This document shows, piece after piece, positions 2,704-25,851 of a DNA stretch of 64,000 nucleotides. The DNA is from Thermoproteota archaeon (GTDB taxonomy: Archaea; Asgardarchaeota; Njordarchaeia; Njordarchaeales; Panguiarchaeaceae). The stretch covers positions 32,001 to 96,000 of the forward strand of contig JANJXX010000002.1 of the NCBI GenBank assembly GCA_024720975.1. Direction: 5' to 3'. The position numbers and the translations under genes were made by a program. The number at the start of each line of letters is the position of its first letter. Positions within the stretch are counted from its first letter, which is position 1. Below the pieces are notes generated by a model. That model saw only the letters and a program-made list of their open reading frames with translations, was not told where the DNA came from and ran no database searches.

Positions 2704-3510
2704 TTAGCTTATCTTATCGATGGACAGCTGCTCGACAAGCTTTCTAATTTTTCTTGGCATGAAAATCGACACGCACTTTGCTGTGCTCTTCCGTAAAATA
2801 TTAGCAACTTCATCTGCAAATGTATCAAATCTACACACTATTGCATACTCGAGAAATCCGATGCGATCAATTCTAACTATTTTTTTGAATAACCCTGTTT
2901 TCCGCATTACCTTATCTAGATGAGTCCTTAGAACACCAGTAACTACAACTCTGTCTAGTCGCTCTCGAAACCACTTTCTAAACATGTTAATCGTCCTTCT
3001 CCCTGGCAGACCTATTACCTGATTTTCTTCCATCGAAACCACTTTCACAACAAATGGCATATTTCTTGCTAGACCGGCTATTCGAATGATTTCATCAATT
3101 TTAGGTTCCAGGCGCCTGGGATTCTTTCTTAAGATCTTCGAAAGTAGCGAAACTGCATTTATTTTTACATACATCGCTTCTTCGGTGCCAATGTCTGTCA
3201 ATATATCACTCCCTAGAACTCCCATAATTCGCCCGCTATACTCCTGTTCAACTACGATATCACTGTATTGTATCCTTCGCCCAAAGACCTTCTCTAGGTA
3301 CCTCACAGCGACCTCTGCATCATCACCCTCGATTCTTACCAAAGTGAAACGATTGTCGAGTTTAGAGGCGTCAACTATGGATGCATTTAATCCTATGAGA
3401 AGACCTTGAAGATAGGCTCTAAGTGCTTTCTTAAGACTATAATCCGGAAGACTGACGTATATTGGATTGAATATTATCGTTCCAATTTTTTCACTGGATA
3501 TTATTGCTAT
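2704..3510 (-). CDS. Conserved archaeal protein (DUF2110-like); probably starts upstream of the track's TTG at 3342
   Basis: VRIEGDDAEVAVRYLEKVFG motif. The frame is open from 3525 with no ATG/GTG/TTG before 3342; an in-frame ATA at 3510 overlaps the rpl37ae stop. Confidence 0.55.
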   Translation of the reverse strand: MAIISSEKIGTIIFNPIYVSLPDYSLKKALRAYLQGLLIGLNASIVDASKLDNRFTLVRIEGDDAEVAVRYLEKVFGRRIQYSDIVVEQEYSGRIMGVLGSDILTDIGTEEAMYVKINAVSLLSKILRKNPRRLEPKIDEIIRIAGLARNMPFVVKVVSMEENQVIGLPGRRTINMFRKWFRERLDRVVVTGVLRTHLDKVMRKTGLFKKIVRIDRIGFLEYAIVCRFDTFADEVANILRKSTAKCVSIFMPRKIRKLVEQLSIDKIS

Positions 3511-3752
3511 CGTTTTTTGTATTGTTCAAGTATACTGAGAAATTTTGCGTTGGTATCAGAAATAGGTTCAAAAGCTGCGCCACCCATTTTAAAACCACAG
3601 TTTTTACATTCCCATATACCAAAAGCAACCCACTCAAGACCTTCTTTTTTGCAATGAGGACATTGGTATCTTGCTTTTTTCTTCTTTTCGATAGCTTCAA
3701 CGCGCTTGCGGACTGTCGCTCCGTACCGAGCCCCAAATCTTCTGGTAGACAT
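3507..3752 (-). CDS. rpl37ae: 50S ribosomal protein L37Ae (eL43)
   Basis: RFGARYGATVRKR, CPHC...WECKNC zinc ribbon, GGAAF; SD AGGTGG precedes the ATG at 3752. Confidence 0.95.
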   Translation of the reverse strand: MSTRRFGARYGATVRKRVEAIEKKKKARYQCPHCKKEGLEWVAFGIWECKNCGFKMGGAAFEPISDTNAKFLSILEQYKKR

Positions 3753-3775
3753 TCTTGCCCACCTGAACTCATTTT

Positions 3776-4612
3776 TCAACCTAATGTTTGCTTTAAAACC
3801 AGATCCTTTATTAAGTTTGACCGTTCCTTAAGATCCCTAACAGCTGCTAGAAAATCGTCTATATCTAAAACCCCAGCTCCACTTTTTTGCGTGGCAACGA
3901 GATCATTCTTAGAGATCGCAAGCGTTAATTTATAGCCGGATACAAGCTCTTCTTGATGTGTTGGATCTAGGACTATCTTGTCTAGTATTTTCGCATATGT
4001 TAACTGTATTGGCATTAGCTCAATATTAAGACTTAGGGGCTTTGTTTCATTTTTTAAAATCACTGGACCCTTGTCCCCTATTTCAACTTTGGGTATCCTC
4101 GTTGTTAATAAGGCACCTAATGTTGCATAGAAGGCTGCATCAACTAGATTTCCGTGGTCATTTATAGGGTATATATCAATAAACATAACGTATACGTACT
4201 TCTCAGGCTCGACGACCAGGTCCTCTAATTTGATGAAGTTTGAACTTCTTATTGATCTATCAACAACACGCGCATATTCTATTCCAATTTCATTGGGAGG
4301 GCCTAATTCAAAGCTGGGCGAGGCTATTGGCATTGTTTCCATGTTGACAACAAACGCCCCTTGATTGGGTGTATCAGGGTAGGGCGGTCCAACTGATATT
4401 TTTATGCCTGCAAGCACTGAAGTCTTGCCTAGTTTTGCTATGCATGATCCCTCCGCTTTTTCGATGCAATTTGGTATTAGCTCTAGTTTACGCATTTCTA
4501 GAAGATCTCTCCCATCTAATCTTTTGCCTCTACTTATGTGGCTAAATATGCTCTCCTTCTCTATGTTAGAAAGAAATTCGCGGTGAATCGAAGACAAGAA
4601 TTCCGAGGCCAT
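3776..4612 (-). CDS. rrp42: Exosome complex component Rrp42
   Basis: GKRLDGR, AEGS, PYPDTPNQG, ARVVDRSIR; RNase PH fold; in the exosome cluster. Confidence 0.95.
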   Translation of the reverse strand: MASEFLSSIHREFLSNIEKESIFSHISRGKRLDGRDLLEMRKLELIPNCIEKAEGSCIAKLGKTSVLAGIKISVGPPYPDTPNQGAFVVNMETMPIASPSFELGPPNEIGIEYARVVDRSIRSSNFIKLEDLVVEPEKYVYVMFIDIYPINDHGNLVDAAFYATLGALLTTRIPKVEIGDKGPVILKNETKPLSLNIELMPIQLTYAKILDKIVLDPTHQEELVSGYKLTLAISKNDLVATQKSGAGVLDIDDFLAAVRDLKERSNLIKDLVLKQTLG

Positions 4613-9181: not shown

Positions 9182-10249
9182 TTAGCGCCTAATAACGGCT
9201 CGTGCCTGCATAAGGATGTTGGTTACAGTCAACAGCTTACACGCTTCAGCGACATTAAGTATCTCTTGAAGTACTAAATCTGAGACAAATTCTATTGTGC
9301 GATCCAAAACTATCTGAGCGAATTTTTTGTTAGAAAGCTCCTGGATTATTGTTGCAAAGACTTCTGAGTTTGATATGAAGTATGCCATTATCGGATTTTT
9401 ATGTATGTCAAAGACTCCGCTAAAGTTCTTGGCTAACAGATCGAGTATTAATTCCTGGATTCTTGTAGGAACATCAAAATTGTGGAGTATTAACCATCGT
9501 GCGGCCACTAGAATTCTCTTTAATACCATGCTTTCGAAGTTCTCGCTAATCTTATTGATATCATGTTCGTTTAATCCTTCTCTTAAGAGAGCCTTTGATC
9601 TGGCTATAATATCATACGTATATATACTTTCCATATCCTGATCAATCTTGAGCGATATATCTCTGAGATTGCTTACTAAAGGAAGCAACAAGTTTTGTAC
9701 ATTTTCATATGAAAGTTTATTGAATGCTGCCCAGGCAGCGTCCATTATCGGCACTAGGAACTCTACTTTCAGTGATTCTATGTCTACTTTGGATATCACC
9801 CTAAGTAAAAAGTTTAATCCCCTTAGCAATACTGTCATACCTATTCCTTTAATTCCGGCTAGAGCTTCCAATGCCCTTGCTGTGGGGTATATGATGCCGA
9901 AGTATAAATCGTCGTCCAATACTATTGGACTTCCCGTCTGTAGATCATCTGCACGGTTATCAGATGTTAAAATCCAGGCACCATCTAGAGGGTCTGTAGA
10001 TGGTTGTGCTAGTCTACTTTTTCTTTGTAGTGAGAGAAGATGATTAAGCACAAAGCTTAAGAAGTTAGAGACATTGGGCACCTCCATAAGATATCTCAAT
10101 GCTAGTATTAGAAAGTTAGTCGTTGCAAGCTTTTCTTGGATTGCATCCTCAGCGTCGTTATTTTTGAAGAATTTCCTGTAGATTAAGTAGTCAAGGAACT
10201 CAGCCAGTGTGGAAGTGGCTAATTTGACGATCGTACGTTCACGTGCTAT
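9182..10249 (-). CDS. Helical hypothetical protein; likely extends 50 codons upstream of the track start (10099) to an ATA
   Basis: Frame is open upstream of 10099 up to a TAG; SD-like GGTGG lies 6 nt before the in-frame ATA at 10249. Confidence 0.55.
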   Translation of the reverse strand: MARERTIVKLATSTLAEFLDYLIYRKFFKNNDAEDAIQEKLATTNFLILALRYLMEVPNVSNFLSFVLNHLLSLQRKSRLAQPSTDPLDGAWILTSDNRADDLQTGSPIVLDDDLYFGIIYPTARALEALAGIKGIGMTVLLRGLNFLLRVISKVDIESLKVEFLVPIMDAAWAAFNKLSYENVQNLLLPLVSNLRDISLKIDQDMESIYTYDIIARSKALLREGLNEHDINKISENFESMVLKRILVAARWLILHNFDVPTRIQELILDLLAKNFSGVFDIHKNPIMAYFISNSEVFATIIQELSNKKFAQIVLDRTIEFVSDLVLQEILNVAEACKLLTVTNILMQARAVIRR

Positions 10250-23108: not shown

Positions 23109-24056
23109 TTAGGCCGACGCTGCCGCTGACTTTATCTTAAACTTAAACTCTACCTTTAGCTCATTATTGAATGCTTTCTCCGCACCCTCAAGTATTTTGT
23201 CACGAAGATTTGCTATAATAGCATCCGCATTTTCGATGCTAACTTTACCTTCTTTCAGGTCTTGATATAATTCATGGAGGATTTTCCCAATATATTTAGC
23301 AAAGGGAGTGTTTCCGCGAACTTTGAGCACGGGTTTTATTACAGTTTCAATGAATCTGCGACCACGCTTGATTATTTTAATTCCAAGTTCTATGCTAAGC
23401 TTTTTGAGTATATCTTCATCAAAACCTAATTCCTTAAGTTTTTCTTGCAAGCTAACTACTTGACCATCCTCTATGTATCGAACCCTTTGGAGACCGTTCT
23501 TGAGAACTTGCATGCCAATTTTCTCGACTAACTTAGAGAGGATACGATCGGACATAATCGATTCCGCGCTCATTTCCTTTATGCTTTGACCAGATCTCGA
23601 TACTATTGTCAGGTTAATCTGTCTTGTGTATTCACTGATTATAGCTCCTCTCACAGTTTTTTTACGATAGACCTTTCTATTATCAATTAATTTGTATCCC
23701 CCACCTCGCTTCTCAACCTTGTATCTGTAGAACCTTATCCCTGGAGGTTCCGTCAACGAGACTTTTCTGAGTTCAGTAGAAATTATTGAGGGATTGTGCG
23801 GAAATCCGAATTTATCGGTTGCTCCGCTTATACTAAACGTGTAGCCTGGAAGACCTATTTCCGAGCCATCTAGTAACTGTCCAATGCGTTTACCATACAG
23901 AGCTCTCTTACTCTTCTCATCTTGTAGCATAATTTCAAATGCTAATCCCGTGCCCATGAATGCCTTTCCGTCACTTATAACCAGTATTATTCCCTCGGGC
24001 TTTGGAGCTTTCTCTTTTTTAACAACCTTCTTTTTCCTATGGACCAAATCTTTCAC
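23109..24056 (-). CDS. rps6e: 30S ribosomal protein S6e with a ~160-aa C-terminal extension
   Basis: LVISDGK, LYGKRIG, ISGATDKFGFP, KKTVRGAII, QINLTIV in the N-terminal half. Confidence 0.85.
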   Translation of the reverse strand: MKDLVHRKKKVVKKEKAPKPEGIILVISDGKAFMGTGLAFEIMLQDEKSKRALYGKRIGQLLDGSEIGLPGYTFSISGATDKFGFPHNPSIISTELRKVSLTEPPGIRFYRYKVEKRGGGYKLIDNRKVYRKKTVRGAIISEYTRQINLTIVSRSGQSIKEMSAESIMSDRILSKLVEKIGMQVLKNGLQRVRYIEDGQVVSLQEKLKELGFDEDILKKLSIELGIKIIKRGRRFIETVIKPVLKVRGNTPFAKYIGKILHELYQDLKEGKVSIENADAIIANLRDKILEGAEKAFNNELKVEFKFKIKSAAASA

Positions 24057-24653
24057 CTACAGAAATACCATAAAGTTTTCAACTGGTTCTTCTATTGATT
24101 CATCAGGACCCAAAACTTCCCTTTCCCTTAGATATTGATTTGTCAGTAACCAGTATATGAGAGCCAAAGATTTACGTCCTCTATTATTACATGGTATTAC
24201 TAAATCTACATTGTAGGGCTCATTTGATGTATCGCATAAGGAGATTATAGGAACCCCAATTTTATTGGCTTCTCTTATTACATTAGCTTCCTTAGATGGG
24301 TCCGATATGAAAACTAATTCTGGTTCCTTATACTGCGGCAGGGATGGGTTAGTTAATATGCCCGCGTAGTATTTCCCTATCATTGCTGGAATTCCTGTCC
24401 ACTTAGAGAACATCAACAAAGGTTTCTGAGCGTAAATCCTCATAGCAAATGCGAAAATATGCTCGGGTTCATAGTTTGCCATCATTTTAGCTGCAATTCT
24501 TACTCGTTCATCAGTTTTTCGGATGTCAATGAGATAAACTCCAACTTTCTTCGTGTGAACGTATTGTTGCATAGGATCTGCCAAGCTGTGAGTCCCGATG
24601 TGAACACCGAATTTCATATACGTCTTAGCGGGAACCAGCAATTCATCCGGCAT
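24057..24653 (-). CDS. rps2: 30S ribosomal protein S2
   Basis: GVHIGT, IDIRKTDER, GILTNP, VDLVIPCNNRGRKSLALIYWLL. Confidence 0.97.
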   Translation of the reverse strand: MPDELLVPAKTYMKFGVHIGTHSLADPMQQYVHTKKVGVYLIDIRKTDERVRIAAKMMANYEPEHIFAFAMRIYAQKPLLMFSKWTGIPAMIGKYYAGILTNPSLPQYKEPELVFISDPSKEANVIREANKIGVPIISLCDTSNEPYNVDLVIPCNNRGRKSLALIYWLLTNQYLREREVLGPDESIEEPVENFMVFL

Positions 24654-24666
24654 CTAATCACCGCAC

Positions 24667-24903
24667 TTAAGATTTCCTCTCCATATCGCCGTAAGCGCTT
24701 CTAAACCATCTATGTTCGTATAGAATTATAGCATCTATTAACTCTAAATGCGCGAGAAACATTCTTCGACAGCACTCTTTTTTCACACCTAAGCTATCAA
24801 GTACTAGCCCGGGATCTTCTCCTGCCTTTACCCTCGCAGCAAATTTTTCCCAGAGGTGACCGATCATTTCACCACAACTAAAGCACCTTATAGGGATGAT
24901 TAT
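24667..24903 (-). CDS. rpoN: RNA polymerase subunit N (Rpo10), ATA start
   Basis: ATA ATC ATC CCT ATA AGG TGC TTT AGT TGT GGT = (M)IIPIRCFSCG, followed by ...CCRRMFL; in-frame TGA at 24912-24910. Confidence 0.93.
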   Translation of the reverse strand: MIIPIRCFSCGEMIGHLWEKFAARVKAGEDPGLVLDSLGVKKECCRRMFLAHLELIDAIILYEHRWFRSAYGDMERKS

Positions 24904-25170
24904 TTTTGTTCACCTTAGCGCTATTGTAACGACATTTGCTTGTTAACTTACAGTTAGCAAATCCTTATCATATTGGCTTTGATATTATAAAAAGAATGCA
25001 CCTTCTAAACTACTTATTCATTTAAAAGCATTCAATAGGTTTGTTGACAACTGACTGATAGTTATAGTTAATAGTACGTCGAATCATTGACTTTGGTTCG
25101 AATATCGAAATGTTCCCCCTTAAATTTGAATAAGCAATGAGTACACTTTGCATTATATTGGTGTGCCTTC

Positions 25171-25851
25171 ATGAAAATAACAAAGCTTGAAGATCTAAAG
25201 GAGCATCTGGAAGACTCCATAAAGAAAGCTGTTACGCTCGCGCCAAAAAGGAACTTTGAGGAAAGCGTAGAGTGCATTATGGTCATACGCGACGTTGATC
25301 TAAGACATCCTGAGAACAGATTTAGGTTACTCGTAAAACTTCCAAATAAGGTTGCTAAAATCGACAAGATAGGGGTATTCGCAGATGGTCCTCATTTATC
25401 TCAGATACAATCCACAAAAATTGAAGACGCCATTGTTGAGGTTATAGATCGCGCAAAGCTAGAGGTTTTAAGATCAAAATCAAGGGCTACAAGAAAACTA
25501 GCCAGAAAACTTCGAATCTTTATTGCAAGTGCGCCTCTAATGCCAATAATCGGTAAGTATGTTGCAAAATATTTATCACCACTAAACAAAATGCCTATTC
25601 CAATTCCATTGGATCAAAACATTATAGACGCTCTAAACGACGCGAAGCATACGGTAGCTGTCAGACTCTCTACATCGCCGCAAATAGCTACAAGGATAGG
25701 ATACAAATCCATGAAAATTGAGCAATTAACCGAAAATGCCTTTACATTAGTGAGCGCTGTGGTTGGTAAATTACCCAGCGGGCTTAGTAATATAAGTGAC
25801 ATTTACATTAAGACGACCATGGGGCCGCCAGCAAGGATATCATTGGAGTAG
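25171..25851 (+). CDS. rpl1: 50S ribosomal protein L1
   Basis: KRNFEESVE, LSPLNKMP, IYIKTTMGP. Confidence 0.95.
   Translation: MKITKLEDLKEHLEDSIKKAVTLAPKRNFEESVECIMVIRDVDLRHPENRFRLLVKLPNKVAKIDKIGVFADGPHLSQIQSTKIEDAIVEVIDRAKLEVLRSKSRATRKLARKLRIFIASAPLMPIIGKYVAKYLSPLNKMPIPIPLDQNIIDALNDAKHTVAVRLSTSPQIATRIGYKSMKIEQLTENAFTLVSAVVGKLPSGLSNISDIYIKTTMGPPARISLE

Follow-up and report, generated by a model that had tools for sequence, protein, structure and literature searches.

In Deinococcus, dnaA is translated from ATC and rpsL from CTG, as found with N-terminal proteomics, and infC probably starts at ATA (PMC2830850). The infC and pcnB genes of E. coli start at AUU (PMC2830850). Across prokaryotes, canonical starts have very rarely been exchanged for CUG or AUU (PMC5622118), and aIF1 of the archaeon S. 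solfataricus has been reported to discriminate against non-canonical starts (PMC8211752, PMC6237735). Near-cognate starts are a known, rare phenomenon, to which the AUA of rpoN described here adds an archaeal case. In the literature that we searched, coverage of which was incomplete, we found no description of AUA-started archaeal rpoN or core genes.

The window, by which we mean the whole 64,000-nt stretch of DNA analysed, corresponds to C19:32001-96000 of the 1.36-Mb MAG of a Panguiarchaeum-like hot-spring archaeon from Njordarchaeia (coded G000; 29 contigs, 81% complete). The gene for RNA polymerase subunit N (rpoN; RpoN or Rpb10) lies on its minus strand at 24667-24903 and consists of 78 codons followed by a TAA stop at 24669-24667. 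Read 5' to 3' on that strand, the stretch is GCTAAGGTGAACAAAAATAATCATCCCTATAAGGTGCTTTAGTTGTGGTGAAATGATC, and the rpoN frame runs TGA (24912-24910) ACA AAA ATA (24903-24901) ATC ATC CCT ATA AGG TGC TTT AGT TGT GGT GAA ATG, with no ATG, GTG or TTG between this TGA and codon 13. The first canonical in-frame start is the ATG of codon 13 (24865-24867, minus strand), which is the start taken by Prodigal-type callers. It lies downstream of the CxxC zinc-ligand pair (24874-24885, minus strand), formed by TGC for Cys7 (24885-24883) and TGT for Cys10 (24876-24874); that is, the first zinc-ligand pair of RpoN sits 5' of the first ATG. In an alignment of 16 sequences (A1), C7, C10, C44 and C45, which make up the CxxC and CC zinc ligands, were invariant. 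Furthermore, Pfam RNA_pol_N (PF01194) matched the 78-aa RpoN at 1e-27 and 96.5 bits, against a cut-off of 26.9, and residues 2-58 aligned with model positions 1-57 of 58. Since model position 1 falls on residue 2, the ATA at 24901-24903 (minus strand), which we propose as the initiation codon from homology and Shine-Dalgarno (SD) spacing, is where Met1 belongs. The sequence-only reading from which we started had placed the first ATG behind the CxxC ligands, had found the frame upstream of it free of ATG, GTG and TTG, and had put the ATA at the Met1 position. On re-reading, its coordinates and reading frame were all correct, and the Pfam alignment agrees with its placement of the ATA. It had also named a second, intact rpoN, together with lack of expression of this copy, as grounds for abandoning the claim; we found one copy only, both in G000 (81% complete) and in each of four sister genomes.

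The start is annotated in two ways. In JGI/IMG, ENA and Logan, which rely on Prodigal-type callers, RpoN is 66 aa long, and Prodigal-based catalogues hold RpoN without half of its zinc site. The NCBI annotation (PGAP; nr) already gives the 78-aa RpoN starting at ATA, through an automatic homology-guided call. The earlier expectation that standard gene callers would truncate the gene was borne out for Prodigal-type callers but not for NCBI. NCBI translation table 11 includes ATA as a permitted start, and the start given to RpoN by table 11 and PGAP is the same ATA as the one proposed here.

The ATA is preceded by the SD sequence AAGGTGA (24910-24916, minus strand), whose last three bases, TGA (24912-24910), close the rpoN frame upstream as an in-frame stop. 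AAGGTGA is complementary to the 16S 3' end GGAUCACCUCCU, which we located in G000 itself. An SD 6 nt before the ATA had been proposed at the outset, and this distance held when the motif was taken as AAGGTGA at 24916-24910; counted from GGTG, the ATA comes after 7 nt. We took the distribution of spacings in G000 from the first canonical starts of long ORFs. The modal GGTG-to-start spacing was 7 nt (93 of the 221 GGTG matches upstream of first canonical starts), and the ATA of rpoN sits exactly at this spacing. TTG is a very common start in G000: the SD-led first starts comprised 71 TTG, 110 ATG and 24 GTG.

We compared the rpoN starts of related genomes, as the sequence-only reading had advised. 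One rpoN match was found in 40 of 41 such genomes, G000 included. Within the genus, the start region reads TGA ACA AAA ATA in G000, TGA ACA GAA ATT in G003, TGA ACT AGA ATT in G004, TGA ATG AAA ATA in G001 and GTG AAG AAA ATT in G002. All four sister species, like G000, have ATA or ATT behind GGTGA at a distance of 5-6 nt, so that a GGTGA-N5/6-ATH layout is common to all five species of the genus. In three of them (G000, G003 and G004), an in-frame TGA lies three codons upstream and there is no canonical start option. G001 and G002 are ambiguous, the former having an in-frame ATG that abuts the SD and the latter having the SD's own GTG in frame. Changes in codons 1-12 among the five species are mostly synonymous (ATA/ATT/ATC, CCT/CCA, AGG/CGT/AGA, TGC/TGT, AGT/AGC and GGT/GGG), and II(I/V)P(I/V)RCFSCG is retained as the encoded peptide, so this stretch is translated in the rpoN frame. 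In addition, at the position homologous to the ATG of codon 13, G003 has GTT and G002 has GTC, and their next canonical in-frame codons are residues 33 and 38, respectively; a downstream start therefore cannot be a general solution. ATA and ATT interchange within the genus, and the single transition to ATG is fixed in none of the five species. This interchange without ATG, seen in five related genomes, suggests that the weak codon is well tolerated or useful at rpoN.

Outside the genus, the other genera of the order have ATG at the rpoN start. At the homologous codon of 80 wider archaeal loci we found ATG in 55, TTG in 10 and GTG in 6 (71/80 canonical). Eight of the remaining nine loci have a canonical start at an adjacent codon, and the ninth belongs to the sister genome G002. 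ATT without an alternative also stands at the rpoN start of one further lineage, G022.

A different feature was noticed in the rpoN genes of two genomes of family f17, G030 (L020:1463-1504) and G040 (L030:1470-1510). Here an insert of 42 or 41 nt that carries a stop follows GTGATAATYCCGGTCCGAT, and its excision restores ...PVR|CFTCG. The insert forms a long hairpin, the stem of which differs in sequence between the two genomes with pairing kept, and a UCCG/CGGA helix that contains an AUA bulge flanks the insert. A protein-coding gene may thus be interrupted here by a bulge-helix-bulge-like intron.

We also looked at the translation machinery. G000 contains one initiator-type tRNA, with anticodon CAU, A1:U72 and three G:C pairs (GGG/CCC) in the anticodon stem, and no second initiator tRNA was found in this genome. 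An unusual initiator tRNA was rejected as a cause, since the sole initiator-like tRNA has a normal CAU, A1:U72 and G:C stem. An elongator Met tRNA is also present in G000, beside a CAU tRNA of the tRNA-Ile2 type that shares its acceptor stem with tRNA-Ile(GAU); tRNAs of the tRNA-Ile2 type read AUA as Ile. The fidelity factor aIF1 (PF01253) scored above the cut-off in G000 as well as in each of the four sisters, and its loss was rejected as a cause because PF01253 occurs in all five species. The aIF1 gene is separate from rpoN and begins with TTG, an ordinary start. For rpoN, we likewise rejected reinitiation and coupling to an upstream gene, since rpoN comes first after a divergent intergenic region of 267 nt; the small uORFs of this rpoN-rpl1 region are not conserved in G003.

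We propose that translation of rpoN begins at the AUA (24903-24901) through the ordinary SD-led initiation of archaea, acting here on a near-cognate codon, and we put the probability of this reading at about 85%. Pairing of AAGGUGA with the 16S 3' end would bring the AUA into the P site at the spacing that the organism prefers, without competition from an AUG, GUG or UUG nearby, and the ordinary initiator Met-tRNA (CAU) would be accepted despite a C:A mismatch with the third base of the codon. AUA is probably used in preference to the AUC of codon 2 or 3, and the first residue is likely to be Met. The predicted product would then have 78 residues starting Met-Ile-Ile-Pro, with the N-terminal peptide (M)IIPIRCFSCGEMIGHLWEK. 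The efficiency of AUA is presumably lower than that of AUG and possibly tunes the level of subunit N. AUA initiation on a core RNA polymerase gene was the central claim of the sequence-only reading, and the sequences support it: there is no canonical option, an SD is in place, and the sister species have ATA or ATT. Conversely, the discrimination reported for aIF1 in S. solfataricus counts against the AUA reading, aIF1 being present in G000. A transcript search found next to none of the words of the stretch in metatranscriptome X14, from a related study, and 0.05 in X13.

We then scanned G000 for codons 6-8 nt after GGTG from which a long frame runs on and which no canonical start precedes. 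The scan yielded CTG, ATA and ATT candidates, for which we checked whether the Pfam domain match reaches upstream of the first canonical start. The M42 peptidase has a candidate CTG start, a Pfam match from residue 45 (model position 1) and its first canonical start at residue 74, and a metallophosphoesterase, also with CTG, has a match from residue 3 (model position 2) and its first canonical start at residue 23. RNase P p29 has ATA (match from residue 13, model position 8; first canonical start at residue 37), subunit A of the A-ATPase (atpA) has ATT (match from residue 6, model position 1; residue 19), and an MFS transporter has ATA (match from residue 13, model position 1; residue 47). Support for a near-cognate start was weaker for DUF424 (ATA) and a RAMP protein (CTG). 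PadR and a GlmS-like gene (both CTG) were not counted, their domain evidence being compatible with the absence of an upstream start. A genome-wide count of SD-preceded ATA starts, which had been suggested beforehand, thus brought up further ATA, ATT and CTG candidates in conserved genes.

The candidates differ in their conservation. The CTG of the M42 peptidase aligns with ATG or TTG in all four sisters, and that of the metallophosphoesterase with ATG in two sisters and ATA in one; both CTG starts, specific to G000, look like recent drift in a reduced genome. The p29 start is ATA in four species and GTA in the fifth (G002), always after the in-frame TGA of GGTGA. In G002 (p29 locus L135), the GTA has no canonical start beside it, and GTA differs from AUG at two positions. 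The ATA of p29 overlaps the upstream TAG, and translational coupling may contribute there. At atpA, the start is ATT, ATA or ATC in all four species where the gene was found. The window itself holds a second gene with an SD-positioned ATA, at 9182-10249 (minus strand; ATA at 10249-10247), which encodes 355 aa and matches no Pfam family. It shows a GGTGG-N6-ATA arrangement, in which a TAG closes the frame upstream and no canonical start occurs over 50 codons; the ATA is found in 5/5 species, and it is precisely from this codon on that the amino acids are conserved (IARERTIVKLA as translated). As far as can be read from these genomes, rpoN is one of a genus-wide set of putative SD-positioned AUH and CUG starts on core genes.

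With loose filters, ATA alone was not enriched at SD spacing in G000 (6 against 3-13 at control spacings), so that ATA is supported by homology and not by counts. For a stricter count we required GGTGA followed by 5-7 nt, a frame no shorter than 75 codons, a stop at most 12 codons upstream and a first canonical start no closer than 12 codons downstream. Near-cognate codons then numbered 12 at SD spacing and the other 54 codon types together 9, compared with 21 and 131, respectively, at seven control spacings (Fisher p = 3e-5). Candidates other than near-cognate codons served as a control: nine of ten have no Pfam domain and look spurious, and the tenth is a real gene with a domain that begins far downstream of its ATG.

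Other explanations of the rpoN start were weighed against near-cognate initiation. Because one G-to-A change would suffice to turn ATG into ATA, and because the genome is a MAG, an assembly or sequencing error with ATG as the true codon had to be considered, and the sequence-only reading had asked for a check of position 24901 for just such an error. Logan contigs from four other hot-spring metagenome studies span the rpoN start with zero differences, however, and six separate NCBI MAG assemblies, which differ from one another by 3-5 SNPs over 3.2 kb, all read ATA. The identical 78-aa product is present at NCBI on 17 contigs, and the four sister species have ATA or ATT at this position. We give a sequencing error practically no weight, and an assembly error is excluded as the cause of the ATA. 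It is also very unlikely that translation starts at the ATG of codon 13 to give a 66-aa protein, or that this copy is a decaying pseudogene with another rpoN active. The MAG is only 81% complete, and a product of exactly 66 aa is what Prodigal-type callers yield, but such a product would be without two of the four invariant zinc ligands. Moreover, the 12 codons upstream of the ATG are kept as protein with synonymous changes, the homologous codon is not a canonical start in G003 and G002, and each of the five genomes has one rpoN match.

Two further explanations would remove the need for a near-cognate start altogether or for a mismatch at it. The GTG inside the SD (24913-24911, in a different frame) might initiate translation, and the ribosome might then shift by +1 at the A-rich run AACAAAAAT to enter the rpoN frame; the reading GTG AAC AAA AAT does contain five consecutive A, where slippage of a Lys-tRNA is conceivable. 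This GTG is without an SD of its own, however, and the same frame reads GTG AAC TAG in G004, while G003 is without the A-run, so that, unlike the ATH, this layout is not conserved. We regard such a frameshift as highly improbable. Hardly more credible is a cognate ATA, either reassigned to Met, as in some mitochondria, or edited in the mRNA from AUA to AUG or AUI, even though tolerance of a mismatch would then no longer be needed. The internal ATA at rpoN codon 5 aligns with Ile or Val in relatives, and the tRNA-Ile2-like CAU tRNA exists in addition to the elongator Met tRNA and a normal initiator. The ATT, ATC and CTG starts in sisters and other genes would be left unexplained by reassignment and by A-to-I editing alike. 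On the basis of one rpoN codon and the tRNA inference, these data do not fit a genetic-code variant in which ATA is Met. Near-cognate initiation at rpoN would be extended, not replaced, by a more tentative proposal, namely that the position of the SD mainly governs starts and that the conserved AUH starts of rpoN, p29 and atpA have been selected as attenuators that set subunit levels. In favour of such selection, ATA and ATT interchange at rpoN, yet ATG is fixed in none of the five species; the same pattern is found at p29 and at the gene at 10249, and G002 has GTA at the p29 start position. Shared ancestry of five related species explains much of this, however, and the CTG starts of the M42 peptidase and the metallophosphoesterase, specific to G000, resemble recent drift. 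It is conceivable, though we consider it doubtful at present, that in the genus Panguiarchaeum start choice is made mainly by SD position and that AUA, AUU and CUG, perhaps also GUA, are stable starts for core machinery that are kept as attenuators. If true, this would be a relaxation of start-codon stringency not documented for archaea, in an Asgard-affiliated lineage close to eukaryotes. Near-cognate initiation is also regulated in eukaryotes.

Among the described systems, Deinococcus resembles the present case in that essential conserved genes start at ATC, ATA or CTG, several per genome and conserved among related species, and in that these starts were recognised because a canonical start would remove conserved N-terminal residues. 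The two cases differ in several respects. Deinococcus is a bacterium with IF3 and fMet-tRNA, for which N-terminal peptides are available, whereas here the organism is an archaeon with aIF1/aIF1A/aIF2 and the starts are read from sequence; the genes are dnaA, rpsL and infC in the former, but rpoN, atpA and RNase P p29 in the latter. E. coli infC and pcnB share with rpoN an AUH behind a ribosome-binding site as a weak start. In infC, however, the weak codon is part of an autoregulatory loop in which IF3 discriminates against AUU, whereas RpoN has no role in start selection; its product being an RNA polymerase subunit, rpoN does not show autoregulation of the infC type. The SD-led initiation of P. 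abyssi and S. solfataricus is similar in its GGUGA-type SD, its initiator tRNA with A1:U72 and three G:C pairs, and its aIF1 (PMC6237735, PMC5103072, PMC8211752). There, aIF1 destabilises non-AUG complexes, whereas here AUA, AUU and CUG are apparently accepted at several genes.

Candidatus Panguiarchaeum symbiosum, known from Yunnan hot-spring MAGs, has been placed in Njordarchaeia (bioRxiv 10.1101/2025.02.13.637844). The annotation error seen at rpoN probably also affects atpA, RNase P p29 and others, and through them the marker-gene alignments by which Njordarchaeia and Panguiarchaeum are placed. In addition, the conserved AUH and CUG starts of core genes provide a natural test case for the near-cognate tolerance of SD-anchored, aIF1-dependent initiation at high temperature, and they allow one to ask whether weak start codons set subunit levels.

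The gene order at 24057-25851 of the window is rpoN-rps2-rps6e, divergent from rpl1-rpl10. The rps2 gene (24057-24653, minus strand; Pfam Ribosomal_S2) starts 13 nt after the rpoN stop and has its own GGTGAT SD; from the 13-nt spacing, rpoN and rps2 probably share a transcript. A candidate TATA box, TTTTTATAATAT, was read from the sequence at 24982-24993 (minus strand), within the 267-nt divergent region between rpoN and rpl1, the latter of which begins at 25171 on the plus strand. In many Thermoproteota relatives, rpoN directly follows rps9, with the S9 C-terminus ...KSYR* just upstream. Ribosomal protein S6e, encoded at 23109-24056 (minus strand), has 315 aa, with the S6e domain at residues 36-162 and a C-terminal extension of about 150 residues; typical archaeal S6e is much shorter than this form. 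Finally, at 2704-3525 (minus strand), beside rpl37ae (3507-3827, minus strand), a DUF2110-like frame is open well 5' of its first canonical start; of the several ATA codons within it, one overlaps the rpl37ae stop (CGATAG).
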